Shown here: positions 17,495-38,851 of the stretch, one piece after another
Numbering within the stretch: the stretch's first letter is position 1
Layout: each line of letters opens with the position of its first letter
Source: Erysipelotrichaceae bacterium
GTDB lineage: Bacteria; Bacillota_I; Bacilli_A; RFN20; CAG-826
Length of the DNA stretch: 64,000 nt
Direction: 5' to 3'
Assembly (NCBI GenBank): GCA_015059105.1
Contig: SVBB01000006.1
Span: 12,306-76,305, forward strand
Notes under the pieces: model-generated
Database searches by the model: none
What the model was told of the DNA's origin: nothing
Seen by the model: the letters and a program-made list of their open reading frames with translations, nothing else
Translations under genes and position numbers: made by a program

Positions 17495-17507
17495 CCTTAC
17501 CCCTCCT

Positions 17508-17548
17508 AAATAAATAAGAGACTCCTACCACCATCTGGTAAAAGTCTC
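17508..17548 (-). terminator. Riboswitch expression-platform terminator
   Basis: GAGACTTTTACCA-gatgg-TGGTAGGAGTCTC-TTATTTATTT; the 5' arm overlaps the aptamer's 3' strand. Confidence 0.75.
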
Positions 17549-17629
17549 GAAATTTGATTTATGTCCGAGTATTAGATAATACTGTTCTGACGGATCATAA
17601 CCCTATAAATAGGTTTCTACTCCCTTTTA
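17539..17629 (-). ncRNA. yybP-ykoY (Mn2+) riboswitch aptamer
   Basis: Minus strand reads AAAAGGGAGTAG...CCGTCAGAACAGTATT-ATCT-AATACTCGG...TTTCGAGACTTTT, matching the GGGAGUAG / GUCANNAC / GAGAC architecture. It lies upstream of a cation antiporter. Confidence 0.8.
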
Positions 17630-17709
17630 TGGAATCGCTTATTCCGTTAATGATTATAACATCATATATTTATGTTGCCAGTCTTAATTTTGTGTATAAT
17701 ACATTAGGT

Positions 17710-18339: not shown

Positions 18340-18422
18340 GAAATGTTTCCGTTCTTAATAACCAATTAAGATCTTCCACACATATGATTTGGTTTTCATC
18401 AATGATATGTTTAGATAACTTA

Positions 18423-20550: not shown

Positions 20551-20604
20551 ATATTTTTGTAAAATAACTGGTTAATGAGGACCGATGTATAATTTTAGAA
20601 AAGA

Positions 20605-21189
20605 CTAATCTTTTAAAATTAAGATGAGGAGATTAGCAAAGGCTAAAGCGAAACAACCAATCATCGAAATCGCAACGATCATATTTAAAACTGAAACCGC
20701 TCCAACAGGCATATTATTCATGTTCCAGAAGACGAACATTAAGTATACGAAAATCGCGACGACAGTGAGTACGAAGACGATGATTGTCAACACTTTAGTA
20801 AGAGTGTCTTCTAAATAATTTGTCGCAAATAAGCAGATATCACATACGGCAAATAATTCAAATGCTATTAAAGCAAGTTCGATGAAGAGGAAAACATAAT
20901 AAGGTATTTGTTCCGCCATAGCAGAAACAAGAATAAAATCAGCAACCGAGCCGATAATAACAAATAGACTCGCGCCATAGACGTTTTTCACATCCCCGTT
21001 GGCTTCTTCCCCGAAGAAATAAAGTAGCGCTCCGACAAAAAGCAATACATCGGCTGTAATTCTAACAAACACAATTGGTGTACCAAGATTGATAAATAAA
21101 CCCAATACCAATGTTACGAGACGCGTCAATAAGCCGATAAGCATAATCGTTCTCGCACTAGCAGCCAATGATCCAAAAAATTTACTCAT
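20605..21189 (-). CDS. Hypothetical membrane protein (about 6 TM), last gene of the accessory operon
   Basis: Almost entirely hydrophobic; RBS GGAGG. Confidence 0.75.
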   Translation of the reverse strand: MSKFFGSLAASARTIMLIGLLTRLVTLVLGLFINLGTPIVFVRITADVLLFVGALLYFFGEEANGDVKNVYGASLFVIIGSVADFILVSAMAEQIPYYVFLFIELALIAFELFAVCDICLFATNYLEDTLTKVLTIIVFVLTVVAIFVYLMFVFWNMNNMPVGAVSVLNMIVAISMIGCFALAFANLLILILKD

Positions 21190-21205
21190 GATTAAAACCT
21201 CCTAG

Positions 21206-22102
21206 TTAATGTCTCATGATCGCTGTGATGATACAGCATATAATTTTTAAAATAAGTAAGATGATGAAGGTAATCGCCGCAAATAATGCAAATAAGATAG
21301 CGACGATACCGATGTTGAAATATAAAGAGATCGGACTAGCGATGTAATAATATTTGACCGGGGAATAAAATACATAATTGCTCACATTATTCCACTGTCC
21401 TTTCGCATGTGATTCCATATCGCTAGCTAATCCATTTACAGAATCTTTAAAAGATAGCCAATAATCATTAATCTCACTACCCATATTTTTGAAATATGAA
21501 TATGTTGATATCTTTAAAGCACTGAATAAGTTATTTCTCATCATATTTTGATGGAGATATTTCATTCCAAAACCAAAACTGATGAAAAGAGAGATGACCA
21601 TCGATACCATTACCATAAGGGCGAAAACAAAGGCGATTGCAAAGATGATGGCGACCATCAACAAATATTGCACTAAACCAATGAAGATGATGAAGATGAT
21701 ACCGATGAGAATGATGAACAAAGAGAGGAAAAGCATGAAGAATTTCGCCGGGTTAGTGAAGCGATAAATCTTTTGACGGTTATATAAATTATCCGCATGT
21801 CTTAAGTTTTCCGTAAAAGCTTCTTTGCTCGCATCGAGGATATTTTTATTCCAAATGAGATAGAATTCTTTTAAATCCCTTGGGGTTCTGCCGTTATTTT
21901 TTAAACAATTAACGAAGGCACGAATATATAAGACAAGTGCGTAAATTAAACCCACTACTCCAGCGATGATACCGATGATGCCAAGAAAGATAAGGCCGAT
22001 GTATATCGTTAGAACAAGGATGAAAGCCGCGATGACTAAAGCAGTCATTATCGCCGCGAATACTTCTCCTGGTTCATATTTTTTTACAACGTAATATGCC
22101 AT
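21206..22102 (-). CDS. Hypothetical membrane protein with internal duplication
   Basis: TM clusters separated by amphipathic segments; RBS AGGAGG. Confidence 0.75.
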   Translation of the reverse strand: MAYYVVKKYEPGEVFAAIMTALVIAAFILVLTIYIGLIFLGIIGIIAGVVGLIYALVLYIRAFVNCLKNNGRTPRDLKEFYLIWNKNILDASKEAFTENLRHADNLYNRQKIYRFTNPAKFFMLFLSLFIILIGIIFIIFIGLVQYLLMVAIIFAIAFVFALMVMVSMVISLFISFGFGMKYLHQNMMRNNLFSALKISTYSYFKNMGSEINDYWLSFKDSVNGLASDMESHAKGQWNNVSNYVFYSPVKYYYIASPISLYFNIGIVAILFALFAAITFIILLILKIICCIITAIMRH

Positions 22103-22114
22103 GTCTCCTCCTTT

Positions 22115-23116
22115 CTAATAATCTAATGTAAGTTTTAGCTGTTTCCCGTTTTTAATATAGGAAACGGATCTGATATTGATCCTAAGATTAGACGCAACCA
22201 TCTTTACGCTTGAAGCTAGATTAGTATCAAATTGTTTTTCGCTGATTTCGATGTTGAGATAGAAACACATTTCTTTCTCTTTGCTATTAATCTTCTCTAT
22301 GAGTTGGTTACGCAGTTCATAAAACGAACTTATTTCGGTAAGAAGCGCATTCTTATCTTTTGATAAATTGCTTAATCTTTCTAAGGAGTCATCATCGCAT
22401 TTCGGCCATGATGGCTTTAAGAGGTGATCATTAGCAAATGCATTATCAGAATAAAATGCATATTGGTAAGAATAAGGCTTCTTCCCTTTTTGGTTATGCC
22501 CAATGCCATAAGTTGCATCGAGGTGATAATAATGGTTATTGATTTTTACAATATTCCATGAATGCGGAGATATCGTGCCGTTTACTTTGGCATTGCTATT
22601 AACGATAATGCAGTATAGTCCGACACTATCGGCCAACATTTTATAGGCGGCGGATATCCCGCTACATTGGGCTTTATGATAATAAAGTGCGCTAATCGCG
22701 TTTTGGTTAAGGATGTTATTGATCTGATAATCGACATTATCGACAAGATAATCGAAGATCATCATATGTTGTTCTAATTCTCCTTTACCTTGACACTCCA
22801 TTTTTATATTCGTGAGGACCTTGCTGATTTCACGATCAATCAAATGTTGTTCATGAACGTAATTTTCTTTATAGATAAGGGTAATATTTTGATTGATTCC
22901 CATTCCCCTACAACTACACGAAACTTGTGGTTGAACATAATATAATTCGGGGTGATCGCTGATTACGCTTTGGAAAATGTCGCTTACTTTTTGATTATCA
23001 ATACGGGACAGTTCACATTGTTTTTTATGCTGCAGCAAACTTTTATAAATCGTTTGATAAGCTAACTGTTCTTCCTTAGAAAGAATTTTAGAAAAGTAAT
23101 AAGCATCTTCCTTCAT
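22115..23116 (-). CDS. Transglutaminase-like domain protein
   Basis: AQCSGIS, HSWNIV and YHLDAT give the Cys-His-Asp triad. DHPELYYV precedes it. No signal peptide. Confidence 0.88.
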   Translation of the reverse strand: MKEDAYYFSKILSKEEQLAYQTIYKSLLQHKKQCELSRIDNQKVSDIFQSVISDHPELYYVQPQVSCSCRGMGINQNITLIYKENYVHEQHLIDREISKVLTNIKMECQGKGELEQHMMIFDYLVDNVDYQINNILNQNAISALYYHKAQCSGISAAYKMLADSVGLYCIIVNSNAKVNGTISPHSWNIVKINNHYYHLDATYGIGHNQKGKKPYSYQYAFYSDNAFANDHLLKPSWPKCDDDSLERLSNLSKDKNALLTEISSFYELRNQLIEKINSKEKEMCFYLNIEISEKQFDTNLASSVKMVASNLRINIRSVSYIKNGKQLKLTLDY

Positions 23117-23120
23117 ATAA

Positions 23121-24554
23121 TTAATCGACTAAAGAGATGATTTCGTTCTCGTCAAAGGCAATACCTTTTCCTTTACCGTTCATCACCCAGGCGAGGGCTC
23201 TAGCTGCGTTTTTGGAATAAAGTTTTCCATTTCCATCATCCGCTAAAGCAGTACAAGCAAAGAATTGGATGTTTTTAAACTTCGCTTTGAGGGTGTTAAC
23301 AAAGTTATCTTCTCCATATTCACGTAAGAAGTTCTCGCAGATTGCATTTTCGGCTTCTAGGAAAGTTGCCTTATGAGATGCGCGATATTCTTCGTTTCCA
23401 CTATCGCCAATCTTTTCATCTAAACCAGGTAAATCAAGTTTTGTGAAGACGACCGCACAATCTTTAGTAATTTTTTCTTTAGAATTAAGGTTTGATAAGC
23501 TATCGACAGTCGTGACGAGCATATCGAGTACTTCGTCTAAACTCATAGAAGAACCGTTAAAGCTAGAAATATCGTTTTTCTTTTCCACTTCTTTACGATA
23601 TTCCTTGATGGAAAGTGGATCGATGATGACGATATAACCTTGTGAGTTTGCATATCCGATTTGACGTTTAAGCGTTTCTTTATCCGCATAAGCTTCGCCT
23701 CCGATATCACAAAGAGAGATTTCATTTTTGACGGCTTGTTTATCTTTCGCCCAGTTGAAACGGTAGAAAGTTAAAGCCATATTGTTGGTCTTAGCGGGGA
23801 AAGCACCATTTTCAATTCCTTGAATATTGTTTTCATATTCCATTGTTCCCTCATCTTCATAATCGAAGTTATATCCAAGCTTCCCAGCATTTTTGCTTAA
23901 AGAATAAATGGACATATTGACGAAACAAGTCTTACCAGAAGATGGTCCACCAATGAGTGGGAAAGTCACTGCGACATGAGCGCCACCACTGGTCAAATCA
24001 AATTGACAGTGAGGACAAATCGCATTGAGTTTTTGTCGACCATTTAAGAAAGTAGTCGGTAACTGATTTCCACATTCACAAGTACGTTTTAAAATACCAT
24101 ATTTTGAAGGGATGAGTTTGGTATGCACTCTACCACAACTACAACGGTAATATGGGAGAGAAATTCTTTCTTGACAGTTAGAACAGTGAGAGACGATACC
24201 ATGCATCTTTCGATAGACGAAGTCGAGGAACCACACGACAGTAAATCCGATGTAGACAATACCCATAAAGATAGAGACGATCAAAGTATGGATAATCGTA
24301 CAGACGAGGACGATAACAGTCGCAAAAACGCTGGTGATAATCGCTTGAACGGTGAAGGCAATAGTTCGAATGAGACTAGTGATTAATCCACCGAAACTGA
24401 AATGGTGTATAATTCCCGCCCAAATATCGATAAAGCGCAAGAAGAGGTTATATTCAATCTTTCCAAGATTAATGAAAGCACCGAAAATAGTCTCAAAAAG
24501 AGAATACCATCCGGGACCGAAAAAATAATTAATTCTTGCTGGTTGTTTTTCCAT
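23121..24554 (-). CDS. Membrane-anchored TRAFAC GTPase (double-GTPase type) with Cys-rich Zn-binding region
   Basis: N-terminal TM helices; CSNC, CSCG..H, CECG and CPHC; G1 GGPSSGKT, G3 DIGGE, G4 TKLD, G5 CTA. Confidence 0.85.
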   Translation of the reverse strand: MEKQPARINYFFGPGWYSLFETIFGAFINLGKIEYNLFLRFIDIWAGIIHHFSFGGLITSLIRTIAFTVQAIITSVFATVIVLVCTIIHTLIVSIFMGIVYIGFTVVWFLDFVYRKMHGIVSHCSNCQERISLPYYRCSCGRVHTKLIPSKYGILKRTCECGNQLPTTFLNGRQKLNAICPHCQFDLTSGGAHVAVTFPLIGGPSSGKTCFVNMSIYSLSKNAGKLGYNFDYEDEGTMEYENNIQGIENGAFPAKTNNMALTFYRFNWAKDKQAVKNEISLCDIGGEAYADKETLKRQIGYANSQGYIVIIDPLSIKEYRKEVEKKNDISSFNGSSMSLDEVLDMLVTTVDSLSNLNSKEKITKDCAVVFTKLDLPGLDEKIGDSGNEEYRASHKATFLEAENAICENFLREYGEDNFVNTLKAKFKNIQFFACTALADDGNGKLYSKNAARALAWVMNGKGKGIAFDENEIISLVD

Positions 24555-24568
24555 AATAATATTCCTCC

Positions 24569-24967
24569 TTAAGCCCCAAAAGTGTTTTCCGCTAATGAAT
24601 GGATGTAGGCCGCAAAGGCGTCAACAATACCAAACATAATGCCCATCACTACCTGGTAAACTGCAAAGATGATTACCAAGACAACAAAGACGAATGCCAC
24701 TAGAGATACAATCACCAAAATCGTCCAGCTCGTGACCACGAAGTATGAGATTGCAATAGAAGCGAAGAAAGCTGTTTTAATAATGCACCAGAAAGTGTGC
24801 AAGGAGAAAAACGAATCGTTATCTGACCATGTATCTCCGATGATTGCAAAACAGTTCATTGCATGTTCAAACATTCTTTTGAATGAACCGACGATCAATA
24901 TTCCGATGATGCCAAAAGCTTTATGGAATACGAAATCTTCAAATACGTTAGATTTAATGTTAGCCAT
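24569..24967 (-). CDS. Small membrane protein
   Basis: Hydrophobic; RBS GGAGG; tight operon spacing. Confidence 0.75.
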   Translation of the reverse strand: MANIKSNVFEDFVFHKAFGIIGILIVGSFKRMFEHAMNCFAIIGDTWSDNDSFFSLHTFWCIIKTAFFASIAISYFVVTSWTILVIVSLVAFVFVVLVIIFAVYQVVMGIMFGIVDAFAAYIHSLAENTFGA

Positions 24968-24981
24968 ATTATTCCTCCATA

Positions 24982-25158
24982 TTAAAGATTGCCAATTCCT
25001 AGAACATCAGTGATAAAGGCTTGGATGATGAAGAAGATTCCACGATAAAATCCCCATACAGCCCCGATCATAATGCTAGCGGCGAGAACTCCTGCAAAAA
25101 GAAACGGACTTGCAAAGATGATTCCCACACCTAGTAAAAAACCAATAATAGATAGCAT
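24982..25158 (-). CDS. Unannotated 58-aa hydrophobic protein
   Basis: MLSIIGFLLGVGIIFASPFLFAGVLAASIMIGAVWGFYRGIFFIIQAFITDVLGIGNL*. Strong RBS AGGAGGAG (25164-25171). Fills the gap between two operon genes exactly. Confidence 0.85.
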   Translation of the reverse strand: MLSIIGFLLGVGIIFASPFLFAGVLAASIMIGAVWGFYRGIFFIIQAFITDVLGIGNL

Positions 25159-25172
25159 AGTATCTCCTCCTT

Positions 25173-27974
25173 TTATTTCTTCTTGTGGAAAAGATTATTC
25201 CAGAATCCACTTTTTTTCTCTTCCACTTCATTGGTTTGTTTTTGTGTATTATTAACATCAGCGTTACTGCTGGTGCTACTTCCTTTTTGTTGAGGCTCAA
25301 TTTTTATTTCCTCAAAATTTGGATTATTATTCATTAACGGTGGCTTACTATTCGTTGGAGTTGGTAAAGGCACTATGCCGTTAAGTTCATCCGCTAATCT
25401 TTTTAATTCAGGATAATATTGACCTTCTTTATCTTGCCTGACTTCTTTAGTAAGATATTTTGCTAATCCCTTCTTGTCTTTTGGAGTCATATTAGAAGAG
25501 AGTTTCTTATAAATTTTATCCGCGATAGGAGAGAATGTATCTCCGCGTTTGCTGGCCAAATAGAGAATTACATAATATTTATCTGCATCAATTTTCTCTA
25601 AGTTAGAAAGGTTGTATAAATCATTCACCATGTTTTCCTGGTCCGCATAAGGGGCGCAGATATTATTAAATAAGGTCGCATCATTACTAAATGAAACGGT
25701 TTTATATTTTAATAAGGTCGTAACTAAAGAACGGAGATAAGTTCTCGCGAAGAGGAATTTACGATTATTATCATCAACACCATTAAAGATGGAAGCATAT
25801 AAATTCTTATCCATGAGACGTTGACGCATCATCACCTCTTTTAAAGATAGTAATTCTTCTGCAAATAATTTAACTTCCACGTTACTGCTCACAGCGCCGA
25901 GACGTTTTAAGGCATTGAATTCATTTTTATAACGAGCTAAATCACCACCCGCGATTTTCTCTAAACTACTTAAAAGAGCAGAATAGATCGCTTTATCTTC
26001 ATCTTTAACTCCTTGTGTAGTGAAAATATTTAACCAATAAGAAATATCATTTGGCTGAATTGCAACGAGCAAATAACCTTTAAAGGCTTTGATGAATAAA
26101 CCTTCTTCATCATCATCTTTTAGATAATATTTCTCATAGTATGATTTAAGGGATTCGTTGGTGCGGCGAGGGGCAGAAGCAAAATCATCTTTTTCAATCT
26201 TTTTAACGATGTTTTTGATGTCGTCGCGTTTAAATAACTCATCATCAATTCTTTGATATCTATTAATATCACTCTTAATGAAATTAGAATAAGCGGTATA
26301 TGCTTCCTTTTTATCACTATGGCAGATGAGTAGCTTATATAGCCTATTTGCAATATAATTGATATCGTTTATATCTTTTAGATAAAGGAGATATTCTTGG
26401 TGAGATTTAATGTCGATCTTATCCACGATTTTCTTATATAAATCACTCTTAAAAGTTACTAAATATGGACTAATAACATTAACGATATATGCCATGAATT
26501 GTTTATCGTTATTGTTATAACTTTCTTCACATATTTTCATCATGAGGTCATAGAGCACTTCTTTGTCTTTATCGATGTTATATGAAGAATCACTAAATAA
26601 AGAATCAAGATAAAGAGCGAGCAAAGCATGATTATTTCTATTCTTATTTAATAATTCTTTACCTTCTCCACTTAATGGATATAGACGCGCGAATTCTTTA
26701 TATATATTAGAATATTTATTTTTAGTTTCATTGATAAAGGCATTCTCATTTTGATTAGAAGACTGCAGATATGGATCAAAGATAAAATGAACATATTTTT
26801 CTTTATCCGCTTCGCTGAGAAGAGGATAGAGGAATCTTTCCATCGCCAAAGTGGCTTCACCTTTAGGATATTTTCCACTTATGACATTATTAAAGGCATC
26901 CGGAATGAAACGAGATAAATTAGTCCCCCTGGAATAGACATTGAGAAGTTCAAGAGCTTCATTAACATCATAATTATCTAGGCCATTCTTCTCGAGTTCA
27001 TTGATGCGCACCGCCATATGATTATCCACACTATATGTGTTTTTGATGCGCTCAATGGTTGCTACAAAAGTCATCGCAGAATAGATATCTTTTTCGAGAT
27101 ATTTTTCTTCTTGATCGACCAATTCATCAACAGTAAGATTTTGAGTGAACTGGTTATTTGGAATATCCACTACCACGCTCGTCAATAATTTTTGTTGGAG
27201 TTTCATTCTCGAAGAAGAACCAGTAATGAATTGAATGCGATATTTTGAACCTTCTGGTAAACCGAGTTTTACATTATTATCATCATAAGAATAAGTATTG
27301 AAGAATATTTGTTCTGCTTCTTCGGGAGATAATAATAAAGAAATCGCGGAAATCCATAGACGTGCATTTTCTAATTTATCATTGATAAAAATCGGTTGTT
27401 TATTATTTTTATCCTTTAAAATGGTGACAATTTTTTTAATATGTTCTTTACGATTATCACTATTTAAGAACGCAGTAATTTCACTTTGTGAAAAACTTGC
27501 GGATGTTTCAACATCAATAGACGGTAATGGAGCGGGATTTTTAGCTGTCCATTCTTCAAGAGTTAAATCATGGCGGAATATGCTTGATCCCATATAGAGA
27601 ATCGGAAATTTTTCGACTTTATCCATAACTAGAGCGTGAATTAAATAGTTCCCCGTTCTCCCACTTGGAGTAAAGCCTTTAAATTCTGGTCCGATATAGC
27701 CAGATTCCGCTAAACAGTATTTTCCACTTGGAAGTTTGAAATAAGCAAAATTACGTGGACATACACCTTCGATATCTTTCATATCAACAGGGTTCCAGGT
27801 CATGTTATTTAAAGACCTACGCATATCAGAAAGCATCGGTACCGCTGGATATTGCATAAGCAAGAAAATCACTTTCGCATCATCTTGAGAAATATCAGAA
27901 GACATCGAATAAACGGCGTAACCACCATTAGGTGAGTTCTTATAGGAAGTATAAAGATATTGACTTACTTTCAT
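25173..27974 (-). CDS. GTPase-associated protein 1-like (GAP1-N2 N-terminus, long helical C-terminus)
   Basis: QYLYTS...GGY...FAYFKLPSG...YIG...GRTGNYLIHALV and WISAISLLL...FNTY resemble GAP1-N2 and GAP1-M. It lies between two GTPase genes. Start at 27974 with RBS AAGGAG. Confidence 0.75.
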   Translation of the reverse strand: MKVSQYLYTSYKNSPNGGYAVYSMSSDISQDDAKVIFLLMQYPAVPMLSDMRRSLNNMTWNPVDMKDIEGVCPRNFAYFKLPSGKYCLAESGYIGPEFKGFTPSGRTGNYLIHALVMDKVEKFPILYMGSSIFRHDLTLEEWTAKNPAPLPSIDVETSASFSQSEITAFLNSDNRKEHIKKIVTILKDKNNKQPIFINDKLENARLWISAISLLLSPEEAEQIFFNTYSYDDNNVKLGLPEGSKYRIQFITGSSSRMKLQQKLLTSVVVDIPNNQFTQNLTVDELVDQEEKYLEKDIYSAMTFVATIERIKNTYSVDNHMAVRINELEKNGLDNYDVNEALELLNVYSRGTNLSRFIPDAFNNVISGKYPKGEATLAMERFLYPLLSEADKEKYVHFIFDPYLQSSNQNENAFINETKNKYSNIYKEFARLYPLSGEGKELLNKNRNNHALLALYLDSLFSDSSYNIDKDKEVLYDLMMKICEESYNNNDKQFMAYIVNVISPYLVTFKSDLYKKIVDKIDIKSHQEYLLYLKDINDINYIANRLYKLLICHSDKKEAYTAYSNFIKSDINRYQRIDDELFKRDDIKNIVKKIEKDDFASAPRRTNESLKSYYEKYYLKDDDEEGLFIKAFKGYLLVAIQPNDISYWLNIFTTQGVKDEDKAIYSALLSSLEKIAGGDLARYKNEFNALKRLGAVSSNVEVKLFAEELLSLKEVMMRQRLMDKNLYASIFNGVDDNNRKFLFARTYLRSLVTTLLKYKTVSFSNDATLFNNICAPYADQENMVNDLYNLSNLEKIDADKYYVILYLASKRGDTFSPIADKIYKKLSSNMTPKDKKGLAKYLTKEVRQDKEGQYYPELKRLADELNGIVPLPTPTNSKPPLMNNNPNFEEIKIEPQQKGSSTSSNADVNNTQKQTNEVEEKKSGFWNNLFHKKK

Positions 27975-27990
27975 CACACCTTCTCCTTTC

Positions 27991-29127: not shown

Positions 29128-29136
29128 AAGAACCTC

Positions 29137-32100: not shown

Positions 32101-32238
32101 GTCACCGCTTGTATTGCCACATGCCGAGGCGATGGCTTTAGTAATTTCGTTAGCGTTATTTGCATCGATACCAAGTTTGCATGCGATGAAATAATTATAT
32201 TTAGGATTCTTAAGCTCCTCTGGTGTACGTACGCTCAT
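29137..32238 (-). CDS. Multidomain co-chaperone-like protein: degenerate J-like domain, four Cys knuckles, helical/TPR-like region, FN3-like repeats
   Basis: DMYEFLGIANSASESEI...LKDKKTRQQYD with no HPD; CPYDDC, CPHC, CWNC, CPTC; PNAPSNLKV...IEW...YTV...YYYAVFA. Confidence 0.72.
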   Translation of the reverse strand: MSVRTPEELKNPKYNYFIACKLGIDANNANEITKAIASACGNTSGDIVSRRLIELRSDIEETLLKDPAKKKEEAERAKHFKLDDVMQIISSKVKSNGIIYRSELQDLCNTVNKTMKYFTFPELEDCFNKFNSNKAVKYIDNITNVIPLSDFDKVSDILATPPAKKDMYEFLGIANSASESEIDAAQQRVYQEANKKSDLKVKQTANTICGLVKSILLKDKKTRQQYDFYIMLKDEVWGNFRLRKSYGAKDITLKEYYDFATIIQSRTKLPINEVEEMLGAGLKYYNLMVSGGDDADSVKGQLGIKHLEICPYDDCGKIYEVGATVCPHCGRPLEVSCWNCGSKMAFTKKSQTCPTCKANYNNKKLFDQASALLDKELLSVAYDEAKANAAISSIRSCVPEPDFAGSKVASKINKATQEIEKRKKEEETLGAAYKEELKTIDEAIVKKCFMRALSLAIALKNKYLTYNGKVTDDLILDIKNNIAKANAEINKARTFVNGGRISEAIKCAIASLEICSDYSDAKAFMSKYPPNAPSNLKVMVNDNKFVRIEWDVGKDADGNLYTVIKKIGSAPTSATDGEIVINNLSLNFFDDSGVVSAVQYYYAVFATRADVNSSLTKAMSPVVLFQEVNNVVQSMEPNIIKVSYSAPANAKSIEVYCSDNAIAPISKTSARKVEATLKGFTDSPTAQSVGYLIIVNYENNGRIISSRGSKQVFTTFSALSPLKNVKVNQISDSAFNISFDENDTGNAKLLFANAKSSSIITNVITKISEQAKMINGLSFIDIKKDNNGNKIFTLPVGSVGFVYPYIANDQLFIISEPIPVNTITGIDGLSYEETENTLIIKGTPNQSASKIYVKVSNSHFVNDFLEEADDVYEGKPSDFLSQDGFKLPLKKNVSHYISLFSELVVGGNKIYSRATHIDDVITPRTREVVFFAIDHPGVVGKSCKLTVSFECDHEATVPETTLRYHDRKLPLDKNSGDELTSFPAITLKKGFIGKKYKGSLSFTCPPLPLGAKFALFVKSENGCYVKLRRQEKL

Positions 32239-32294
32239 ATGATAAATTCCTTATATTTAAAGTAATAATTACACTGCTAAACAAGTGCTAAAAA

Positions 32295-34427
32295 CTAATT
32301 GCCACTTGCAAGGGAAGAACCAATCGACTTGAAAGTGGTAACGAGTTGACTCAAGTCAACCTTCTTAGCACAGCCTGGGGAAGCGATTTGGTTAAGGAAC
32401 GATTGATTGCTGTCGGCGACGCCTACCGCATATATCGTTGCTCCTTTATTTTTCACATCATTCGCGGAGTTTTTCGCTACTTCTGGTTCCCACCATTCGC
32501 CATCTGTTAAAACGATGATAATCTCTGTGCCAGCTTGCACTGATCCCCCGCCACCGAAGGCGCTTTTAAGAGAAAATTTTGGTTTAGCCCCACCACTCGT
32601 ATTCATTCTGTAATACCTTAAGTAATGGTTGAATGGGTCCGCGCTTGTGCCACCATCAGCATCTAATGCATTAACCGCCGACATGATACGTGATTTATTT
32701 TGTTCATGATCTAACACCATTTGACAATTTTCATTGAAGGAAATGAGTGAAACATGGGTGAAAGATAAATCTATTTGATTTACAAATTCTTCGACAGCTT
32801 GAACCGCCGCTCTGATACCAGACCCATACATAGAACCAGAAATATCGATCATGAATGTAACATCAAATACCGGTTTACGGCTCTCAGCTTTCTCTTTCTT
32901 TAAACGCGCTTCAATTTCACTTAAGGATTCAGTGATTGGACACTGTTTAACATTCAAGGATTGACCGCCTTGAATCTTGGCTTTCACTTCCACGACACCG
33001 TTTTGGTTATATAGATATGAAACGACAACTTGGTTCTTTCCGCTTGGGAAACCTGTTATTTCATATTTATATAAAATATTTGCGTCATAAGGATCCTCAG
33101 TCTCGCCTTGGAGAACATAGGCTTCCATCTTTGTGCCTTGATAGGAATAACTCTTATCGAAGTCTTCTCCAACATTGGAATTTTTCTTGATGACGATGGA
33201 GTTAATTAATTTATCACTTTCATCATTTTCCCAAATCAATAAGCCTAAAGAATGGGAAGTGATATCTTTGATACTGTTATTAGACAGGGTGAAGGCTGCT
33301 GGTTTTTCTCCCCCAGAGAAATTCGCCATCCCCAAATTAACGGGATTAAGAGTCAGGGTTCCAAATTTGCATAGATGGGCTTGCATAGCTGCCCCTGCGG
33401 CGACGATAGAGTCAACTTTGTTTCCGATGATGCGTGGTTTTTTTCCGAATTCTCTTTCCACTGCTTCTGCAATCTGTGGCATTCTTGTGGAACCACCGAC
33501 AAGGACGACCTCATCGAGATTCTTCCAAGAAAATCCTCCGCCAATTTCTGTGAAACACTGCTCTGTTAAAAGCATCGTTTCATTGAGTAAATTTTCTGTT
33601 GCACGATCAAAATCAGCGCGTGTTATCTCGTATTTTCCATACATTCCATCACATTGAATGGCAATATTAGTAGATGGAACATTAGTTAAGACCTTCTTGG
33701 CTTTTTCACATTTGACCATGAGCTCGTTAAAATCTTCAGGGTAGGCGGTGATATCAATGCCAAATTCGCTATTGAATTTATCGACGACAAAATCAATCAA
33801 AGCGCGATCCCAGTCTCTTCCTCCGAGTTGGTGGTTACCATTAGTGCAAAGCGGGGTGACGTTTGGTCCGACAATCTTTGCAATCGTGACGTCAAAAGTA
33901 CCACCGCCAAGGTCATAAACCATGACATTTTTTGTTCCGACCCCAGTTAAACCATAAGCGATGATTGCTGCCGTTGGTTCGTTGAGTATTTTTAATACTT
34001 TAAGACCTGCTCTTTCACCGGCATGAATAGTAGCCTGTCTTTGAGCTTCATTAAAATAAGCTGGGCAAGTGATAACTGCTCCTTCAATTTCCACATCATT
34101 AGATTCTTCAATCTGTTTTTTGAGATTTTCCAGAAAAATAGCCGACAAATCTTCAGCAGAATAATCTTTTCCGTCTAAATATGCCGAATAATTTGGCTCT
34201 CCCATCTGGGACTTATAGAATGAAGCAGTGTTAGTGTTTCCACTAGCTTGTAAGTCTTTTGCTTCTTGTCCGATGAGAATTTGCCCACCTTCGATATAGA
34301 CTACCGAGGGGGTAGTTTCCTCACCGATTTCATTTTTTAAAATATTTATTTTGGAGGTACCCTCATCAAAGAGAGCAACCGCCGAATAGGTCGTGCCTAA
34401 ATCAATTCCAACATTAACTTTTTTCAT
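32295..34427 (-). CDS. Hsp70-family protein fused to a C-terminal vWA domain
   Basis: GIDLGTTYS, TCPAYF, NEPTAA, DLGGGTFD and VGGSTRMP; vWA MIDAS DISGS...GGT...LTDG. Start at 34427 with GAGG upstream. Confidence 0.92.
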   Translation of the reverse strand: MKKVNVGIDLGTTYSAVALFDEGTSKINILKNEIGEETTPSVVYIEGGQILIGQEAKDLQASGNTNTASFYKSQMGEPNYSAYLDGKDYSAEDLSAIFLENLKKQIEESNDVEIEGAVITCPAYFNEAQRQATIHAGERAGLKVLKILNEPTAAIIAYGLTGVGTKNVMVYDLGGGTFDVTIAKIVGPNVTPLCTNGNHQLGGRDWDRALIDFVVDKFNSEFGIDITAYPEDFNELMVKCEKAKKVLTNVPSTNIAIQCDGMYGKYEITRADFDRATENLLNETMLLTEQCFTEIGGGFSWKNLDEVVLVGGSTRMPQIAEAVEREFGKKPRIIGNKVDSIVAAGAAMQAHLCKFGTLTLNPVNLGMANFSGGEKPAAFTLSNNSIKDITSHSLGLLIWENDESDKLINSIVIKKNSNVGEDFDKSYSYQGTKMEAYVLQGETEDPYDANILYKYEITGFPSGKNQVVVSYLYNQNGVVEVKAKIQGGQSLNVKQCPITESLSEIEARLKKEKAESRKPVFDVTFMIDISGSMYGSGIRAAVQAVEEFVNQIDLSFTHVSLISFNENCQMVLDHEQNKSRIMSAVNALDADGGTSADPFNHYLRYYRMNTSGGAKPKFSLKSAFGGGGSVQAGTEIIIVLTDGEWWEPEVAKNSANDVKNKGATIYAVGVADSNQSFLNQIASPGCAKKVDLSQLVTTFKSIGSSLASGN

Positions 34428-34466
34428 AAGAGTACCTCGCAAAAAAATAAATAATTTTTTAAATAA

Positions 34467-36146
34467 TTAAGCTAAAGTGAGTTTAGAAGCGACATCCATA
34501 CCGACTTTATCGGCATCGCCACCTTTTCTCACTGGTTTAAGGACGTGTTTCACACCAGAATTAATTTCGATGAGAGTGAGAGTCAATTGTCCGTTCATAT
34601 CAACGTCGAGTTGAATGTCAACTGGAGTGGACGCTGGAATAGCTGGTGAGAAAGCGATTGGCATATCTTCATAAAGTTCTGCACATTCGTCTGCGGCGAC
34701 ATCAGCATTCAAAGATTCGTTTTCCATAATCTTGAGGTTGATACTATCGACGAGATTATTACCTTCTGCGATGACAAGGCCCTGTCCACCACTGAGTTGC
34801 GCGTAGGATGCTGAGGCTGGTTTAGGTGTATCTTTAACGATGAGGTTATAATATCTTTCTTCACCGCCATTATAGTAACGGAAGCAGTAAGATTTAGTGC
34901 ATAATTCAACGACCTTATTGACTGTACCATTGCTACCAGCAAATTCTGTAGAAGCTCCACTGCTTAAAGCGAATGGGCTATTTGCATCACCACCGAATGC
35001 TGCTGATTCGCTAGTTGGAGCCACTACTTCACCAGTCGCTTCATCAATAGCTAAACCACTAGCCACTAGAGCAGCACCATTAGAAACAGCCTTATCTGGA
35101 TCAAACGACACTAATGGTTTGTTATACTGTGCTGTTAACCCAGCTTCGACTTGTTTCATTCTTGTCGATCCACCGACTAAGATGATTTCATCGATTTGAT
35201 CGATCGTCATGCCTTTCTTAGTGAGCATATCGTCGATTAAAAGAATCGTTTGATTGAATAAGTCCGCTGTTAATTCATCAAATTTTTCTTGGGTGATTTC
35301 CACACGATATTTATTACCATCAAATGATGGAGTGACAGTTGCAGTTGGTTTAGCAGTGAGCATCTTCTTGGCTGCTTCAATCTTCTCAGAGAAGAAAGCT
35401 TTCATTTCTGGATCTTCATCTAAAACCGAACGATCAACACCGGTATTATTGCAGAATTCATCTTTGACATAATTCGCTAATGCTGCATCCCAGTCTTTAC
35501 CACCGAGTTGGTGATTACCACCAGTTGTGATGACTTGGTATTTACGATCAGTGCCTTCAAAATCAAGTCTCATAACTGTACAGTCGAAAGTACCACCACC
35601 TAAGTCATAAATTAAAACTGTTTTATGAATATTTTCATTTCTGGAATTACCATAAGCGATAGCCGCCGCGGTTGGTTCATCCATGATTTTTAAGACTTTT
35701 AATGGTTGTCCATTTGCTAAAGTGACATTTTCACCAGCTAATCTAGTGGCCGCACGGGCTGCATCACCAAAGTAAGCTGGACAAGTGATGACCGCACCTT
35801 CAATTTCTTCGCCACCTAACGCTAACTCCGCATCAGCGATAAGTTTCTTTAAAATAAGGGTAGAGACGGCAGAGGCACTATATTCAACACCATTGACTGT
35901 TGCACGATAGTCAGGATCACCCATGTAGTTTTTAATTCTTTCTACTAAACATTCAGGATTCATCGCCCCCGCTTCTCTAGCCACGGAGCCAACAGTCACT
36001 GTTTCTCCATTTGGATCAAAGAAAACGATAGATGGAGTTGTCTTTTCTCCTTCGCTAGATTCAATGTTGACGATGTTTTGTGTTTCATCAACATAAGAAA
36101 CAACTGAGTATGTTGTTCCTAAATCAATACCAACTTTTTTACCCAT
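34467..36146 (-). CDS. Specialised Hsp70-family protein lacking the helical lid
   Basis: GIDLGTTYS, TCPAYF, DEPTAA, DLGGGTFD and VGGSTRM. The substrate-binding domain is divergent and ends soon after the beta subdomain. Not housekeeping DnaK. Confidence 0.92.
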   Translation of the reverse strand: MGKKVGIDLGTTYSVVSYVDETQNIVNIESSEGEKTTPSIVFFDPNGETVTVGSVAREAGAMNPECLVERIKNYMGDPDYRATVNGVEYSASAVSTLILKKLIADAELALGGEEIEGAVITCPAYFGDAARAATRLAGENVTLANGQPLKVLKIMDEPTAAAIAYGNSRNENIHKTVLIYDLGGGTFDCTVMRLDFEGTDRKYQVITTGGNHQLGGKDWDAALANYVKDEFCNNTGVDRSVLDEDPEMKAFFSEKIEAAKKMLTAKPTATVTPSFDGNKYRVEITQEKFDELTADLFNQTILLIDDMLTKKGMTIDQIDEIILVGGSTRMKQVEAGLTAQYNKPLVSFDPDKAVSNGAALVASGLAIDEATGEVVAPTSESAAFGGDANSPFALSSGASTEFAGSNGTVNKVVELCTKSYCFRYYNGGEERYYNLIVKDTPKPASASYAQLSGGQGLVIAEGNNLVDSINLKIMENESLNADVAADECAELYEDMPIAFSPAIPASTPVDIQLDVDMNGQLTLTLIEINSGVKHVLKPVRKGGDADKVGMDVASKLTLA

Positions 36147-36161
36147 AAAAATTCCTTCCTT

Positions 36162-37334
36162 TTATTGTTGTTCGTATTTATAAACATCCACTTTACATAA
36201 GTAGATGACTTTACCGCCGTAAAGATATGTATCGGTATGTCTAAAGGCAATCGTCTTGTCGAGTTCCTCTTTATTTGTTGGAACAAATTTCAGCATACGA
36301 TTAGTCTTCATGTCATAAACGTTAGAGACATCGATATCAATCTCCACTCCCAAACGTGAGAGAATATCGCTAGTTGAGGAGATGACAAAGATGAGGACAT
36401 CGCTATAAAGAGATGTTTTGTTATCTTCGTTAATAGCCTCCATAGTATTCTCGATTTTCTTCTTAAGTTTGAGATAGAAATTAGTCACAATCTTGTAAGA
36501 TGGGAGAAGAAGCGCATCGGCATAATTAGCATCCACACTCGCAGCAACTGCCTCCACTTCTTTATATGCTTCATCAAGCAAAGCATTATCTTTTAAGATT
36601 GCTTCTATATTTGCTTTATTCTCTTCGACAAGTTTAATGACATCATTAAGTGAATAAGCACCTTCTTCTTTCGCTTGTTCATCGCTTTCTTCAACGATGA
36701 CGTTTTCAGTTTCTGGCTCTTTAACATAGTTATCCACTTTACGCATTGGGATAGTTGCTAAATCTTTACCATCGAGTAAAAATTTCTCCCCATCATATTC
36801 GATAGAGAAGTTTGCTAGCATCTCCACAAAATCATCATCGAGGTAACCGAGATACTTTTTTGTTGTTTCAATATCTGTAGAAAACTTAGCGACATTCCGC
36901 AAAGTATTTTTCGCATCCTCGCGATAGGAAATAAGACCCATGATAATTTGTTTGAGGAGAGTATAACCAAAATCTTCGCGATATTTGTTGAGCTCATTTT
37001 TCATCTTTACAATCGTTTCATCTTTAGTTTTCGCTAAGCGAATAGAATCGCGCAAAGCATTAAAATATTGTTTGAGCAAAACAACGATTTCTTCATATTT
37101 TGGTTCTGGTTCAATTGGTTTTTCTTGGGCAGGTTCTTCGTTAACAATTTCTTCATTAACTGGCTCTGCTTCTAGAGGTGTCTCTTCAATAACGATCTCT
37201 ATTTTCTCTTCAGGATTTGCTTCTACCGGCTGTTCTTTCTTTTCCTCAATAACAGGCTTTTCTTCCTCGTTAGAAGACTCATCATTAATTGGTTCAATCA
37301 CAATCTTGTCTAAATCAAAAACTGATATTGTCAC
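36162..37334 (-). CDS. GrpE-like nucleotide exchange factor with duplicated helical region
   Basis: Acidic N-terminus; KDETIVKMKNELNKY...EMLANFSIE; second half DILSRLGVE...YDMKTN...DKTIA...YLYGGKVIY..KVDVY. GTG start with RBS AAGGGGG. First gene before two Hsp70 genes. Confidence 0.72.
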   Translation of the reverse strand: MTISVFDLDKIVIEPINDESSNEEEKPVIEEKKEQPVEANPEEKIEIVIEETPLEAEPVNEEIVNEEPAQEKPIEPEPKYEEIVVLLKQYFNALRDSIRLAKTKDETIVKMKNELNKYREDFGYTLLKQIIMGLISYREDAKNTLRNVAKFSTDIETTKKYLGYLDDDFVEMLANFSIEYDGEKFLLDGKDLATIPMRKVDNYVKEPETENVIVEESDEQAKEEGAYSLNDVIKLVEENKANIEAILKDNALLDEAYKEVEAVAASVDANYADALLLPSYKIVTNFYLKLKKKIENTMEAINEDNKTSLYSDVLIFVISSTSDILSRLGVEIDIDVSNVYDMKTNRMLKFVPTNKEELDKTIAFRHTDTYLYGGKVIYLCKVDVYKYEQQ

Positions 37335-38665: not shown

Positions 38666-38683
38666 GAAAGGAGGATGTTAAAT

Positions 38684-38851
38684 ATGTTCGTTTTGACTAA
38701 TGAGCTCTTAGCCGAAATCGAAAGCTCTATCATCGAAGAGGAAATAGATCTCTCCGTAGAAGCAGAGCCAGATTGCTACACTTGCCAAGATGCATGCCAT
38801 AGAGAATGCTCAGGCAACTGCGGTGGTCCACAAAAATCTGGTCAACCATAG
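38684..38851 (+). CDS. Unannotated 55-aa Cys-rich RiPP-like precursor peptide
   Basis: MFVLTNELLAEIESSIIEEEIDLSVEAEPDCYTCQDACHRECSGNCGGPQKSGQP*. RBS AAGGAGG at 38668-38674. Starts 18 nt after the radical SAM stop. Confidence 0.88.
   Translation: MFVLTNELLAEIESSIIEEEIDLSVEAEPDCYTCQDACHRECSGNCGGPQKSGQP

Follow-up and report, generated by a model that had tools for sequence, protein, structure and literature searches.

The window analysed here, a stretch of 64,000 nucleotides, carries a run of 12 co-directional ORFs on the minus strand between positions 20605 and 37334. All 12 are present at the coordinates below, given in gene order with the basis of each assignment; the last two lines are the genes that follow the operon.

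36162..37334, minus strand: g1, GrpE-like nucleotide-exchange factor, 390 aa (GrpE through transitive phmmer/Pfam matches)
34467..36146, minus strand: g2, Hsp70 paralogue, 559 aa (PF00012)
32295..34442, minus strand: g3, Hsp70 with C-terminal vWA (PF00012 and PF00092)
29137..32238, minus strand: g4, J-like/double zinc ribbon/FN3 protein, 1033 aa, cytoplasmic (AF2, Foldseek, sub-cutoff Pfam)
27991..29127, minus strand: g5, soluble zinc-ribbon GTPase of the double-GTPase family (PF19993)
25173..27974 (listed ORF up to TTG 28016), minus strand: g6, GAP1 (PF20013 and PF20014)
24982..25158, minus strand: g7, two-TM peptide, 58 aa (TM segments, strong ribosome site)
24569..24967, minus strand: g8, TM protein, 132 aa (TM segments)
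23121..24554, minus strand: g9, membrane-anchored double-GTPase (PF19993 and TM block)
22115..23116, minus strand: g10, putative transglutaminase-like Cys-His-Asp enzyme, cytoplasmic (PF01841)
21206..22102, minus strand: g11, polytopic membrane protein, 298 aa (three hydrophobic blocks)
20605..21189, minus strand: g12, polytopic membrane protein, 194 aa (about six hydrophobic segments, ribosome site)
19189-20550, minus strand: LytS/YehU-type histidine kinase (PF06580 and PF02518)
18423-19208, minus strand: response regulator (PF00072)

The gaps between consecutive ORFs are 15, 24, 56, 9, 16, 14, 14, 14, 4, 12 and 16 bp when g6 is counted from its conserved ATG at 27974 rather than from the listed TTG at 28016, so that 10 of the 11 are at most 24 bp. 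The conserved ATG is preceded by the ribosome site AAAGGAGAAGG, and the TTG start gives a 26-bp overlap with g5. GGAGG-like ribosome sites lie upstream of most of the genes, with g10 as the clearest exception. Hydrophobic TM segments are found in five of the 12 products (g7, g8, g9, g11 and g12), and all core proteins lack signal peptides; all except the TM proteins are cytoplasmic. The operon is genuine, and the earlier note was right to describe a minus-strand run with gaps mostly under 25 bp.

Six other loci were found, in an Anaeroplasma MAG and in uncultured Clostridia MAGs, and all share this gene order as far as their contigs extend. The recurring order is GrpE-like, Hsp70, Hsp70-vWA, J-like/zinc ribbon/FN3, zinc-ribbon GTPase, GAP1, two-TM peptide, TM-GTPase, transglutaminase-like and TM protein, with orthologues of g1 heading four of the other loci. 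From this colinearity, the arrangement is more than chance. A juxtaposition of unrelated or decaying genes that form no functional unit would fit the promoter and terminator scans, which found nothing above shuffled expectation. We give it almost no credence, since it is contradicted by synteny across six loci at 25-64% protein identity, by invariant catalytic motifs and by intact, closely spaced ORFs (4-56 bp apart) that have ribosome sites. One of these loci, L003, also encodes an LRR protein and a second FN3 paralogue, which carries a TM segment and ends in a long C-terminal extension.

Nearly all domain assignments in the earlier note were reproduced by Pfam, phmmer or AF2 models searched with Foldseek. 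The DO-GTPase2, GAP1-N2, GAP1-M, HSP70 and VWA profiles match above cutoff, whereas GrpE is undetected and DnaJ reaches an E-value of 0.8. The g1 product has an acidic N-terminus, long helices and a GrpE-type C-terminal domain at about residues 300-390, and matches nothing in Pfam. A phmmer search of 1.8e9 representatives returned 125 matches, and PF01025 GrpE was above cutoff in all 10 of the weak matches that were scanned (E 2.4e-9 to 1.6e-4, lengths 166-293 aa). By this transitive route, its sequence is confirmed as GrpE-like.

Both Hsp70s lack the helical lid. In g2, PF00012 (258 bits) covers residues 5-367 only, leaving about 190 C-terminal residues with no family match behind an intact ATPase domain whose nucleotide-binding motifs are invariant compared with the DnaK of the host genome; identity to its counterparts in the other loci is 50-64%. 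In g3, whose true start is probably Met6, PF00012 (334 bits, 11-510) spans the ATPase and the beta substrate-binding part, and a vWA domain (PF00092, 63 bits, 527-690) stands where the lid would be. Its MIDAS residues (DxSxS...T...D) are kept in all four g3-type sequences aligned, and the fusion recurs in all six other loci; the protein database contains 57 clusters with it. NCBIfam DnaK scores for the two proteins are 264 and 315 bits against a cutoff of 648 bits.

The g4 protein has a helical N-terminus, a J-like domain (about 166-230), a double zinc ribbon (310-356), a further helical region (362-525) and FN3-type repeats (536-1033). The J-like domain, weak in Pfam, can be aligned to the J-domain of the genome's own DnaJ, and the HPD motif is missing from all eight g4-type sequences. 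Zinc-ribbon profiles score below cutoff (DZR 1.6e-4, TerY_C 3.6e-4), and eight cysteines are invariant among the homologues aligned. The FN3 repeats are undetected by Pfam; with an AF2 model (pLDDT 75.5), the best Foldseek matches are tandem FNIII structures (fibronectin FNIII 7-10, 1fnf, E 3.4e-7), which confirms the C-terminal beta-sandwich repeats as FN3 at the level of the predicted fold. Like the canonical DnaK-DnaJ-GrpE system, the operon has complete Hsp70 nucleotide-binding motifs, a GrpE-type C-terminal domain and a J-type helical hairpin; unlike it, the operon has neither HPD nor helical lid, and its GrpE falls under Pfam detection. The canonical grpE-dnaK-dnaJ genes of the host lie on a different contig. 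These features support the view, put forward in the earlier note, of a private and deviant chaperone set.

The two GTPases both match DO-GTPase2 (PF19993, cutoff 27), with 33.2 bits for g5, whose N-terminus consists of Cys-rich zinc ribbons, and 40.4 bits for g9, in which a TM block (64-114) is followed by a zinc ribbon and the GTPase domain. All 11 sequences compared keep the P-loop GxxxxGK[ST], switch Thr, DxxGE and [TV]KxD unchanged, the Walker-B Glu included. A g9 counterpart occurs in all five loci that extend to its position, with two copies in L004. The g6 product combines GAP1-N2 (PF20013, 44.8 bits) and GAP1-M (PF20014, 27.6 bits, cutoff 24) with an alpha-solenoid of about 580 residues and a disordered polar tail. 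Its AF2 model has a pLDDT of 77 overall and about 90 in the solenoid, and Foldseek returned generic HEAT/TPR-type matches only (best E 8.4e-4).

Between GAP1 and the TM-GTPase, a two-TM ORF of 55-63 aa with a ribosome site is present in all five loci that reach this point. The adjacent g8 is similar to the TM region at the start of the TM-GTPase (blastp E 5e-6 against the N-termini of g9 orthologues); in the six other loci, no orthologue of g8 itself was found. The g10 product matches Transglut_core (PF01841, 26.4 bits, cutoff 23), has no TM segment, and carries Cys151, His185 and Asp200, invariant in five of five sequences; it is a putative thiol peptidase or transglutaminase. The gene is found in four of five comparable loci, being missing from L003. 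Orthologues of g11, which has no family match and for which Atlas gave nothing, are likewise found in four of five comparable loci, at 24-30% identity. A blastp search with g12 gave no match in the six other loci; like g8, it is seen only in the present operon.

GAP1 is found in none of 40 relatives, and PF20013 in four of 401 genomes of the class, the other three of which carry a different, solo GAP1 context. At the syntenic site of a genome from the same genus, about 740 bp separate the flanks, and thus about 27.6 kb at the present locus is extra, an island that contains the operon. This island is marked by neither an integrase nor a tRNA junction nor flanking repeats, and no copy of the operon was found among the viral contigs searched. 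Housekeeping genes, which differ between loci, flank the operon here and in four other loci. The operon is well supported as a self-contained, accessory cassette that moves horizontally. Neighbouring genes encode a peptide-maturase-like radical SAM protein and an MntA-like antitoxin; viperin was considered for the former and rejected in favour of the peptide-maturase type.

Kaur, Burroughs, Iyer and Aravind (eLife 2020; PMC7159879) predicted computationally that double-GTPase/GAP1 systems mediate NTP-dependent conflict with invaders, and their main text ties the class to multicellular bacteria. It divides GAP1-N2 systems into themes described as non-overlapping. Systems of the second theme carry GrpE and two HSP70s, one of which lacks the peptide-binding domain, together with an FNIII protein to which DnaJ is fused. 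The present operon matches this theme in its pair of DO-GTPase paralogues, of which one bears zinc ribbons and the other N-terminal TM helices, and in having GAP1 (N2 and M) encoded immediately downstream of one GTPase gene. Further shared features are a protein with FNIII repeats and a J-type domain, HSP70 and GrpE, a second HSP70 with no recognisable peptide-binding domain, TM components and occurrence in Firmicutes. Its identity as a GAP1-N2 type double-GTPase (DO-GTPase) cassette of the HSP70/GrpE theme is well supported, and the class assignment in the earlier note holds. The link between an Hsp70 machine and a GTPase/GAP1 module, which that note had highlighted, is genuine here; as a member of the predicted theme, however, the operon brings no new combination of components. 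What goes beyond the main text of that paper is the Hsp70-vWA fusion, the conserved Cys-His-Asp (transglutaminase-like) gene, a J-like domain without HPD and a host of 1.5 Mb, a small-genome gut bacterium that is not evidently multicellular. The TM-GTPase also differs in having no C-terminal TM. With the tubulin and kinase/PP2C/vWA themes of the same text the operon has in common a DO-GTPase, GAP1-N2 and FNIII core, vWA and membrane components, although no tubulin, kinase or PP2C is among its 12 products.

The model of Kaur et al. (PMC7159879) treats the FN3 repeats as a rapidly evolving part, and the earlier note had them recognise a target. Here, variability in the FN3 segments does not exceed that in the remainder of g4, and it is the alpha-solenoid of GAP1 that evolves fastest, with 17-95% identity across the same eight homologues in which the N2 domain retains 52-97%. 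Between L006 and L007, identity is 98% for g5 and 95.5% for g4, compared with 78.5% for GAP1 and 71% for g7; between L005 and L008, it is 98% for g5 and 53% for g3. Target recognition by FN3 is thus unsupported by the variation. Judged from these alignments, such mosaic, uneven evolution is as would be expected of conflict genes.

Taken as a whole, the locus is probably best explained as a conflict cassette of the HSP70/GrpE theme, and for its contacts, trigger and output we infer the following scheme. The TM-anchored GTPase g9 would sit at the membrane with the small TM proteins g7 and g8, and would pair with the soluble g5 to form a GTP-gated switch. The conserved N2 and M domains of GAP1 would bind the GTPases, while its rapidly evolving solenoid would perhaps serve as the specificity or docking surface. 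The g4 protein might recruit both private Hsp70 ATPases, to be reset by g1, while the MIDAS site of the g3 vWA domain might grip a peptide ligand. With HPD missing from the J-like domain and lids from the Hsp70s, this set would presumably hold or remodel a particular partner rather than serve general folding. Output might come from cleavage or cross-linking by g10, or from membrane damage or growth arrest caused by g11 and g12.

The defence role in this scheme, which we also infer, met with no match in PADLOC, where none of the 12 proteins was significant (best E-values 0.003-0.005, to unrelated models). The products include no nuclease, NADase or other classic effector, and the surroundings here and in four other loci hold no recognisable defence island. 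The lack of mobility markers and viral copies, the small genome of the host and FN3 repeats that do not evolve fastest weigh against the preferred reading as well. No experimental work on Hsp70-linked double-GTPase/GAP1 systems was found in the literature searched. The earlier interpretation is partly supported; of the outcomes that it named as refuting, neither a gene order confined to this locus nor a failure of the profile searches was observed. The lack of classic effectors and PADLOC matches would also suit a non-immune, membrane-proximal assembly or quality-control machine, whose task would be to insert, assemble or remodel the operon's own membrane proteins or an envelope structure by means of the GTPase pair and the private Hsp70/J-like/GrpE set. 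Membrane proteins make up five of 12 products, and Kaur et al. (PMC7159879) remark in their main text on a likeness to the regulated assembly of cytoskeleton-like complexes. Control would fall to the LytS/YehU-type kinase and response regulator, encoded on the same strand 54 bp downstream and inside the same island. This pair is possibly linked to the operon, but a homologous pair (30% and 48% identity) lies downstream in only one of the other loci, L006. We consider such a machine unlikely: none of the 40 relatives has the cassette, nor does the syntenic site in the same genus, which argues that no conserved cell function is served. Conflict also accounts better than housekeeping for the mosaic, uneven divergence seen in GAP1, the small TM peptide and the transglutaminase-like gene.

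Conflict need not be directed at phages, and the cassette, which lies in a strain-variable 27.6 kb island, could instead serve inter-bacterial conflict or its own maintenance as an addiction-like module of a mobile island. The cassette moves as a unit between different genomic contexts, adjoins the radical SAM and antitoxin genes, and in L003 is accompanied by the extended FN3 paralogue and the LRR protein. This is a still less probable reading, as the island showed neither a secretion system nor a toxin domain, and no gene for an integrase, a transposase or conjugation, and as the core proteins are cytoplasmic or membrane-bound.

The preferred reading, a conflict cassette of the HSP70/GrpE theme, has parallels among other predicted systems. 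Type III CoCoNuT McrBC systems (Bell et al., eLife 2024; PMC11090510), as described there, are predicted to act in defence and include Hsp70-like NBD/SBD units and TerY-like vWA genes; they share with the operon a GTPase, a non-canonical Hsp70-like unit and a MIDAS-bearing vWA. They differ in having a McrB-like GTPase, degenerate Hsp70-like ATPase motifs, predicted RNA binding and nucleases, whereas the operon has intact ATPase motifs and no nuclease. The MoxR-vWA ternary conflict systems (PMC7159879, main text) likewise combine an NTPase switch, a peptide-binding vWA co-factor and a large 'third' scaffold protein, although the ATPase here is Hsp70 rather than AAA+ MoxR and the scaffold GAP1 rather than VMAP/iSTAND. 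In those systems, a transglutaminase-like thiol peptidase occurs as a rare signalling peptidase.

The operon and the gene pair that follows it occupy these positions:

20605-37334, minus strand: operon of 12 co-directional ORFs, numbered g1 to g12 in the order of transcription
18423-20550, minus strand: LytS/YehU-type histidine kinase and response regulator, downstream of g12

The operon products are a GrpE-like protein (g1), an Hsp70 (g2), an Hsp70-vWA fusion (g3), a J-like/zinc-ribbon/FN3 protein (g4), a soluble GTPase (g5), a GAP1 protein (g6), a 58-aa protein with two transmembrane (TM) segments (g7), a TM-GTPase (g9), a transglutaminase-like protein (g10), and the TM proteins g8, g11, and g12. 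Successive genes from g1 to g12 are separated by 15, 24, 56, 9, 16, 14, 14, 14, 4, 12, and 16 bp, as counted from the listed starts except for GAP1, whose start was taken as a conserved ATG at 27974 preceded by a strong ribosome site; starting from the listed TTG (28016), it would run into g5. GGAGG-type ribosome sites are present upstream of most operon genes, the clearest exception being g10. The listed TTG start of g3 has no ribosome site, and the true start is probably Met6, where the g3 orthologues begin. Upstream of g1 there is a divergent intergenic region of 215 bp. Scans for regulatory signals yielded 51 promoter-like sites versus 72 in shuffled sequences and 12 terminator-like sites versus 12.6 expected from shuffles, so no operon boundary can be set by these scans. 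Hydropathy analysis places TM segments in g7, g8, g9 (as an N-terminal block), g11, and g12, and reveals none in the remaining seven products.

Nearly all of the domain assignments made in the earlier note were reproduced one for one by Pfam searches, with g1 and g4 resolved through further work. Specifically, HMMs for HSP70, VWA, DO-GTPase2, GAP1-N2, and GAP1-M matched their expected products, and GrpE was reached only via intermediate sequences. For g1, Pfam gives no match even at E 10. When 1.8 billion representatives were searched with phmmer, 125 hits were returned, the weaker of which are proteins of 166-293 aa that align to g1 residues ~300-390. Because Pfam GrpE scores above its cutoff in all 10 of these weaker hits that were scanned, g1 is assigned a GrpE-type C-terminal domain.

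Both Hsp70 proteins match PF00012, with g2 matched over the ATPase domain only (258 bits, residues 5-367) and g3 matching over residues 11-510 (334 bits) ahead of a C-terminal vWA domain (63 bits). When aligned with the DnaK of the same genome, g2 and g3 retain the phosphate- and adenosine-binding motifs and are both missing the helical lid. The vWA domain of g3 stands where the lid would be, and its MIDAS site is intact in all four aligned g3-type sequences. Fusions of this type (~666-720 aa, proteins P0136-P0192) form at least 57 clusters in the protein database, with source names that include Methanosarcina, Myxococcota, Deltaproteobacteria, and Alphaproteobacteria, and thus reach far beyond this operon family.

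The fourth protein, g4, matches the Pfam DnaJ model weakly (E 0.8) across the full model length. The DnaJ of the same genome has a J-domain to which g4 residues 166-230 can be aligned, and an AlphaFold2 model shows a helical hairpin in this region. The HPD motif is found in none of eight aligned g4-type sequences; in these, the corresponding loop is either K-[SG]-D or T-N-D, and its Asp is invariant. Zinc-ribbon matches fall below the Pfam cutoff, and the alignment reveals eight invariant cysteines that form a double zinc ribbon. Pfam fn3 has no match in g4. The model, built from the eight-sequence alignment (mean pLDDT 75.5), is helical to residue ~525, with residues 536-1033 rich in beta structure, and a Foldseek search against the PDB places tandem fibronectin type III domains on top (1fnf, E 3.4e-7, probability 1.0) of the 128 matches with an E-value of at most 0.001. 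We also considered g4 as part of a TerY-P triad, in which a PP2C and a Ser/Thr kinase accompany the vWA protein. This candidate was rejected because Pfam detects neither a kinase nor a PP2C domain among the 12 products; the sole link is a TerY_C zinc-ribbon match of 21 bits versus a cutoff of 28.4.

The claim that this chaperone set departs from the standard one is borne out by the missing HPD motif and lid, by NCBIfam DnaK scores for g2 and g3 (264 and 315 bits) that lie below the 648-bit cutoff, and by a GrpE-like protein without a Pfam match. Canonical DnaK/DnaJ/GrpE systems exhibit the HPD motif, the lid, and equivalog-level scores, whereas the operon set has none of the three. Moreover, an ordinary grpE-dnaK-dnaJ operon is present elsewhere in the genome (contig C16, separate from the contig of the window), and the Hsp70 set of the 12-gene operon is therefore an extra one.

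The second half of the operon is built around GTPases and GAP1. Both g5 (33.2 bits) and g9 (40.4 bits) match DO-GTPase2 (PF19993, cutoff 27), and the P-loop, the switch Thr, the DxxGE motif with its Walker-B Glu (the residue by which the family is defined), and [TV]KxD are invariant in all 11 aligned g5/g9-type sequences. The former protein carries Cys-rich zinc ribbons and the latter a zinc ribbon in addition to its N-terminal TM block. The GAP1 gene lies directly downstream of g5, and its product matches GAP1-N2 (PF20013, 44.8 bits) and GAP1-M (PF20014, 27.6 bits; cutoff 24). Its structural model (pLDDT 77) includes an alpha/beta N-terminal part of lower confidence, the M domain, a predicted alpha-solenoid of ~580 residues with pLDDT near 90 that makes up the C part, and a disordered polar tail. 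Foldseek with the full model recovers only generic HEAT/TPR/importin-like solenoids (best E 8.4e-4). The g10 protein scores 26.4 bits against the transglutaminase core (cutoff 23), and its Cys151, His185, and Asp200 residues are kept in five of five aligned sequences. For g11, an Atlas structure search gave nothing usable (best feature score 0.75, TM scores below 0.5).

Relatives of the GAP1 protein are few, with only 10 present in a word-indexed set of 5.8 billion proteins. An alignment-based GAP1 scan of one genome per species uncovered six other loci, five of them in MAGs of uncultured Clostridia and the sixth in an Anaeroplasma MAG. As judged by blastp, all six preserve the order g1-g2-g3-g4-g5-g6-small TM-g9-g10-g11 as far as their contigs extend, and the condition that would have refuted the earlier interpretation, an unconserved gene order, does not apply. 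The best identities to the window proteins among these loci are 64% for g2, 58% for g3, 53% for g5, 45% for g9, 39% for g4, 38% for g10, 37% for g1, and 30% for both g6 and g11. The Hsp70-vWA fusion is present in every locus, and in five of five GAP1 is separated from the TM-GTPase by an ORF of 55-63 aa that has two TM segments and a ribosome site. Likewise, the transglutaminase-like gene occurs in four of the five loci extending that far, being absent from the Anaeroplasma locus (L003), and g11 occurs in four of five. The genes g8 and g12 are found in the window operon only and not in the six other loci. One locus (L004) has two TM-GTPases, and two others (L006 and L008) carry one additional Hsp70-like gene. 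The kinase, which starts 54 bp after the operon, and its regulator recur downstream in L006 only, so their linkage to the operon is facultative. The flanks are housekeeping genes that vary from locus to locus (DXP synthase, SpoVAD, alcohol dehydrogenase, HTH regulator), which indicates that the cassette moves as one unit. In the Anaeroplasma locus, the region 15631-21495 also encodes a second FN3-protein paralogue (1219 aa), which has a TM segment and is extended over a long stretch at its C-terminus. Next come an ORF of 211 aa and a leucine-rich-repeat protein of 526 aa.

The earlier note put the joining of an Hsp70 machine to a double-GTPase/GAP1 module in its title. The junction is real, and it was predicted in 2020. 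The main text of Kaur, Burroughs, Iyer, and Aravind (eLife 2020; PMC7159879) defines DO-GTPase/GAP1 systems and splits them by the type of GAP1-N domain. According to this text, GAP1-N2 systems carry an FNIII-repeat protein and are associated with organisms of multicellular habit. A 'second theme', accounting for ~14% of GAP1-N2 neighbourhoods and mostly from actinobacteria and firmicutes, is described there as having HSP70 and GrpE, with a subset having a second HSP70 that lacks the peptide-binding domain, and an FNIII protein that is typically fused to DnaJ or TPR. One GTPase is reported to have two zinc ribbons and the second to have N-terminal TM helices plus one C-terminal TM helix, both being TRAFAC GTPases with a conserved Walker-B Glu, and GAP1, with N2, M, and C domains, is encoded downstream of the DO-GTPase gene (PMC7159879). 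The operon shares with this theme DO-GTPases, GAP1 N2 and M, the FNIII protein, the HSP70 pair, and GrpE. Since its component set fits the second theme, the junction was already in print as a computational prediction, and the operon is a member of an already predicted kind with some lineage-specific features. In contrast to the published theme, hydropathy analysis finds no C-terminal TM segment in g9, and the DnaJ-type region of g4 is recognised only weakly and lacks HPD. In the main text of the 2020 paper, transglutaminase-like peptidases are given for VMAP systems only, and 'HSP70-vWA' does not appear, though Figure 6B or Figure 1-source data 1 may show this fusion, the transglutaminase-like gene, or the lineages concerned.

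Sequence divergence is distributed unevenly over the cassette. Between the closely related loci L006 and L007, identity is 98.4% for g5, 95.5% for g4, 95.0% for g3, and 91.3% for g9, and it is lower for g11 (82.7%), g10 (80.9%), GAP1 (78.5%), and the small TM peptide (70.9%). Within GAP1, the N2 domain is 52-97% identical to that of the window, versus as little as 17-21% for the solenoid in the same distant homologues. The FNIII repeats of the published systems are described as rapidly evolving and as a proposed sensor (PMC7159879, main text), and the FN3 part of g4 had likewise been proposed in the earlier note to recognise a target. However, the mean pairwise identity among seven g4 orthologues, a small sample, is 45-50% for the FN3 segments versus 44-50% for the helical remainder outside the zinc ribbons. 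The FN3 repeats are no less conserved than these helical parts in this sample, and the pattern of variation does not back their proposed role as the target-recognising part. On this evidence from a small set of sequences, the diversifying surface comprises the GAP1 solenoid and, along with it, the membrane and peptidase genes further downstream, rather than the FN3 repeats. Another pair of loci, L005 and L008, is mosaic (g5 98.4%, GAP1 87.7%, g4 72.2%, and g3 52.8% identity), which suggests recombinational exchange of the chaperone half.

In the host assembly (1.50 Mb, 26 contigs, 92% complete), the cassette is an accessory element. GAP1 is found in none of 40 relatives searched, of which three are from the same genus, 21 from the same family, and 16 from the same order. 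PF20013 occurs in four of 401 sampled genomes of the class, namely the host genome and three of one other genus; the latter were rejected as carriers of the same operon because tblastn with 15 query proteins at E 1e-4 gave no match. In the one of these three that was annotated (genome G231), locus L026 (2874-16188) encodes a GAP1 protein of 945 aa with N2 and M domains and no detectable DO-GTPase or Hsp70 gene beside it. Genes for type IV pili (prepilin peptidase, PilC-like, PilB-like) are on one side, and on the other are an alkaline-phosphatase-domain protein and a McrBC-like pair (AAA_5, DUF2357).

A genome of the same genus as the host (G003) has both flanks on a single contig, separated by ~740 bp; its counterparts of the genes to the left of 18339 are 71-98% identical, and those of the genes to the right of 46030 are 70-97% identical. 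Consequently, ~27.6 kb of the window (18340-46030) is an island relative to this genome. It holds the response regulator, the kinase, the 12 operon genes, a radical SAM gene, and seven further genes (three unknowns, an oxidoreductase, a MarR regulator, a flavodoxin, and a P-loop ATPase). Searches of repeats and annotations found no integrase, flanking direct repeats, or att-like repeats for the island, and no tRNA gene at its edges; a tRNA-Trp gene lies ~0.85 kb beyond the right edge. Other features of the island and its surroundings are listed here.

37550-38665, plus strand: radical SAM/SPASM gene, divergent from the operon, nearest to PapB/CXXX-repeat peptide maturases; small ORFs that follow it (e.g. 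38675-38851) might encode a precursor peptide
44750-45784, minus strand: P-loop ATPase just inside the island, with a weak PADLOC mad8 likeness (E 7e-7)
45797-45845, intergenic at the right island edge: 23-nt unit in two exact copies, 26 nt apart start to start
46030-46509, minus strand: MntA-like nucleotidyltransferase of the type VII antitoxin family (47 bits versus cutoff 60), just outside the island and 97% identical in G003
48783-50700, minus strand: two ORFs (300 and 340 aa) for which the Pfam and PADLOC models scanned give no match and which are missing from the syntenic part of G003, forming a second small indel beside the island
1233-10748, minus strand: giant ORF of 3171 aa, unmatched by Pfam at E 0.001 and by tblastn (E 1e-10) against the syntenic part of G003
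11017-13176: ClpC-like gene next to the giant ORF, 98% identical in G003

Assignment of the radical SAM gene as a viperin was rejected. The PADLOC pVip match (5.2e-16) covers the radical SAM core only, and NCBIfam peptide maturases match at 4.1e-46 versus 1.4e-14 for viperin, all below their cutoffs.

A role in defence, as had been proposed for the operon, is favoured by its patchy distribution and island location, by its movement as a unit, by its mosaic and uneven divergence, and by its place in a class for which a conflict role has been argued. Evidence against this role is also present. No operon protein matches a defence system in PADLOC-DB v2.0.0, where all 12 lack a hit better than E 0.003, and there is no classic effector among them. 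No defence island surrounds the operon in the window or its counterparts in four other loci, and a scan of viral contigs with the GAP1 alignment found no viral copy, with none of 14 pattern matches being a relative. Furthermore, a literature search by system names, Pfam accessions, and Hsp70 plus defence found no experiments on DO-GTPase/GAP1 systems, returning only comparative genomics and unrelated work on Hsp70 and defence. The accessible text of a 2026 ParA preprint calls DO-GTPases 'recently characterized' (its refs 28, 31, 34), a phrase that may or may not refer to experiment.

The genes, folds, intact active sites, synteny, and accessory status are established by the analysis, and all else about mechanism we infer from the protein families. 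The two GTPases g5 and g9 are taken to form a membrane-tethered GTP switch, with GAP1 as a scaffold that would hold them via its N2 and M domains and display its variable solenoid. The J-like/FN3 protein would fit the two lidless Hsp70s to a particular partner, g1 would recycle both of them, and the vWA MIDAS site of g3 would bind a peptide. Output would then be provided by g10, the transglutaminase-like enzyme, along with the polytopic membrane proteins.

These elements can be combined into a more ambitious reading of the operon as an immune system, which we regard as improbable when taken as a whole. The sensor of invaders in this lineage would be the hypervariable solenoid, acting with the small TM peptide, the transglutaminase-like enzyme, and the TM protein that co-vary with it, and not the FN3 repeats; the solenoid would serve as a HEAT-like receptor by analogy with the repeat sensors of NLR proteins. 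The lidless Hsp70s, the J-like protein without HPD, and the GrpE-like factor would constitute an ATP-driven clamp that seizes a specific ligand via the vWA MIDAS site, rather than a folding machine. In keeping with the mosaic of L005 and L008, the chaperone and GTPase/GAP1 halves would be swapped between cassettes by recombination. The Hsp70-vWA fusion, found likewise in proteins whose source names are archaeal or proteobacterial, would be a wider immune building block.

Among predicted conflict systems, those of the DO-GTPase/GAP1 type constitute a large class, in which the Hsp70 theme stands out as the oddest because a whole chaperone cycle has been recruited to a non-folding use. At 16.7 kb, the operon is a compact and complete example with intact catalytic motifs and six syntenic relatives, and the same-genus genome gives a clean contrast between presence and absence. 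Together, these properties make the operon practical to use as a construct in an initial functional test. Should the system turn out to be immune, Hsp70 would be a dedicated immune component in bacteria.

Three RNA-library runs, which come from two studies, have contigs that match the stretch at 90-99% likeness over 30, 30, and 28 of its 30 bins and span several gene junctions, including that of the kinase with g12. Coverage by contigs of this kind does not establish transcription. Near-identical DNA is also present in public gut and faeces metagenome runs, and one DNA run, belonging to none of the studies that could be the source, covers all 30 bins.
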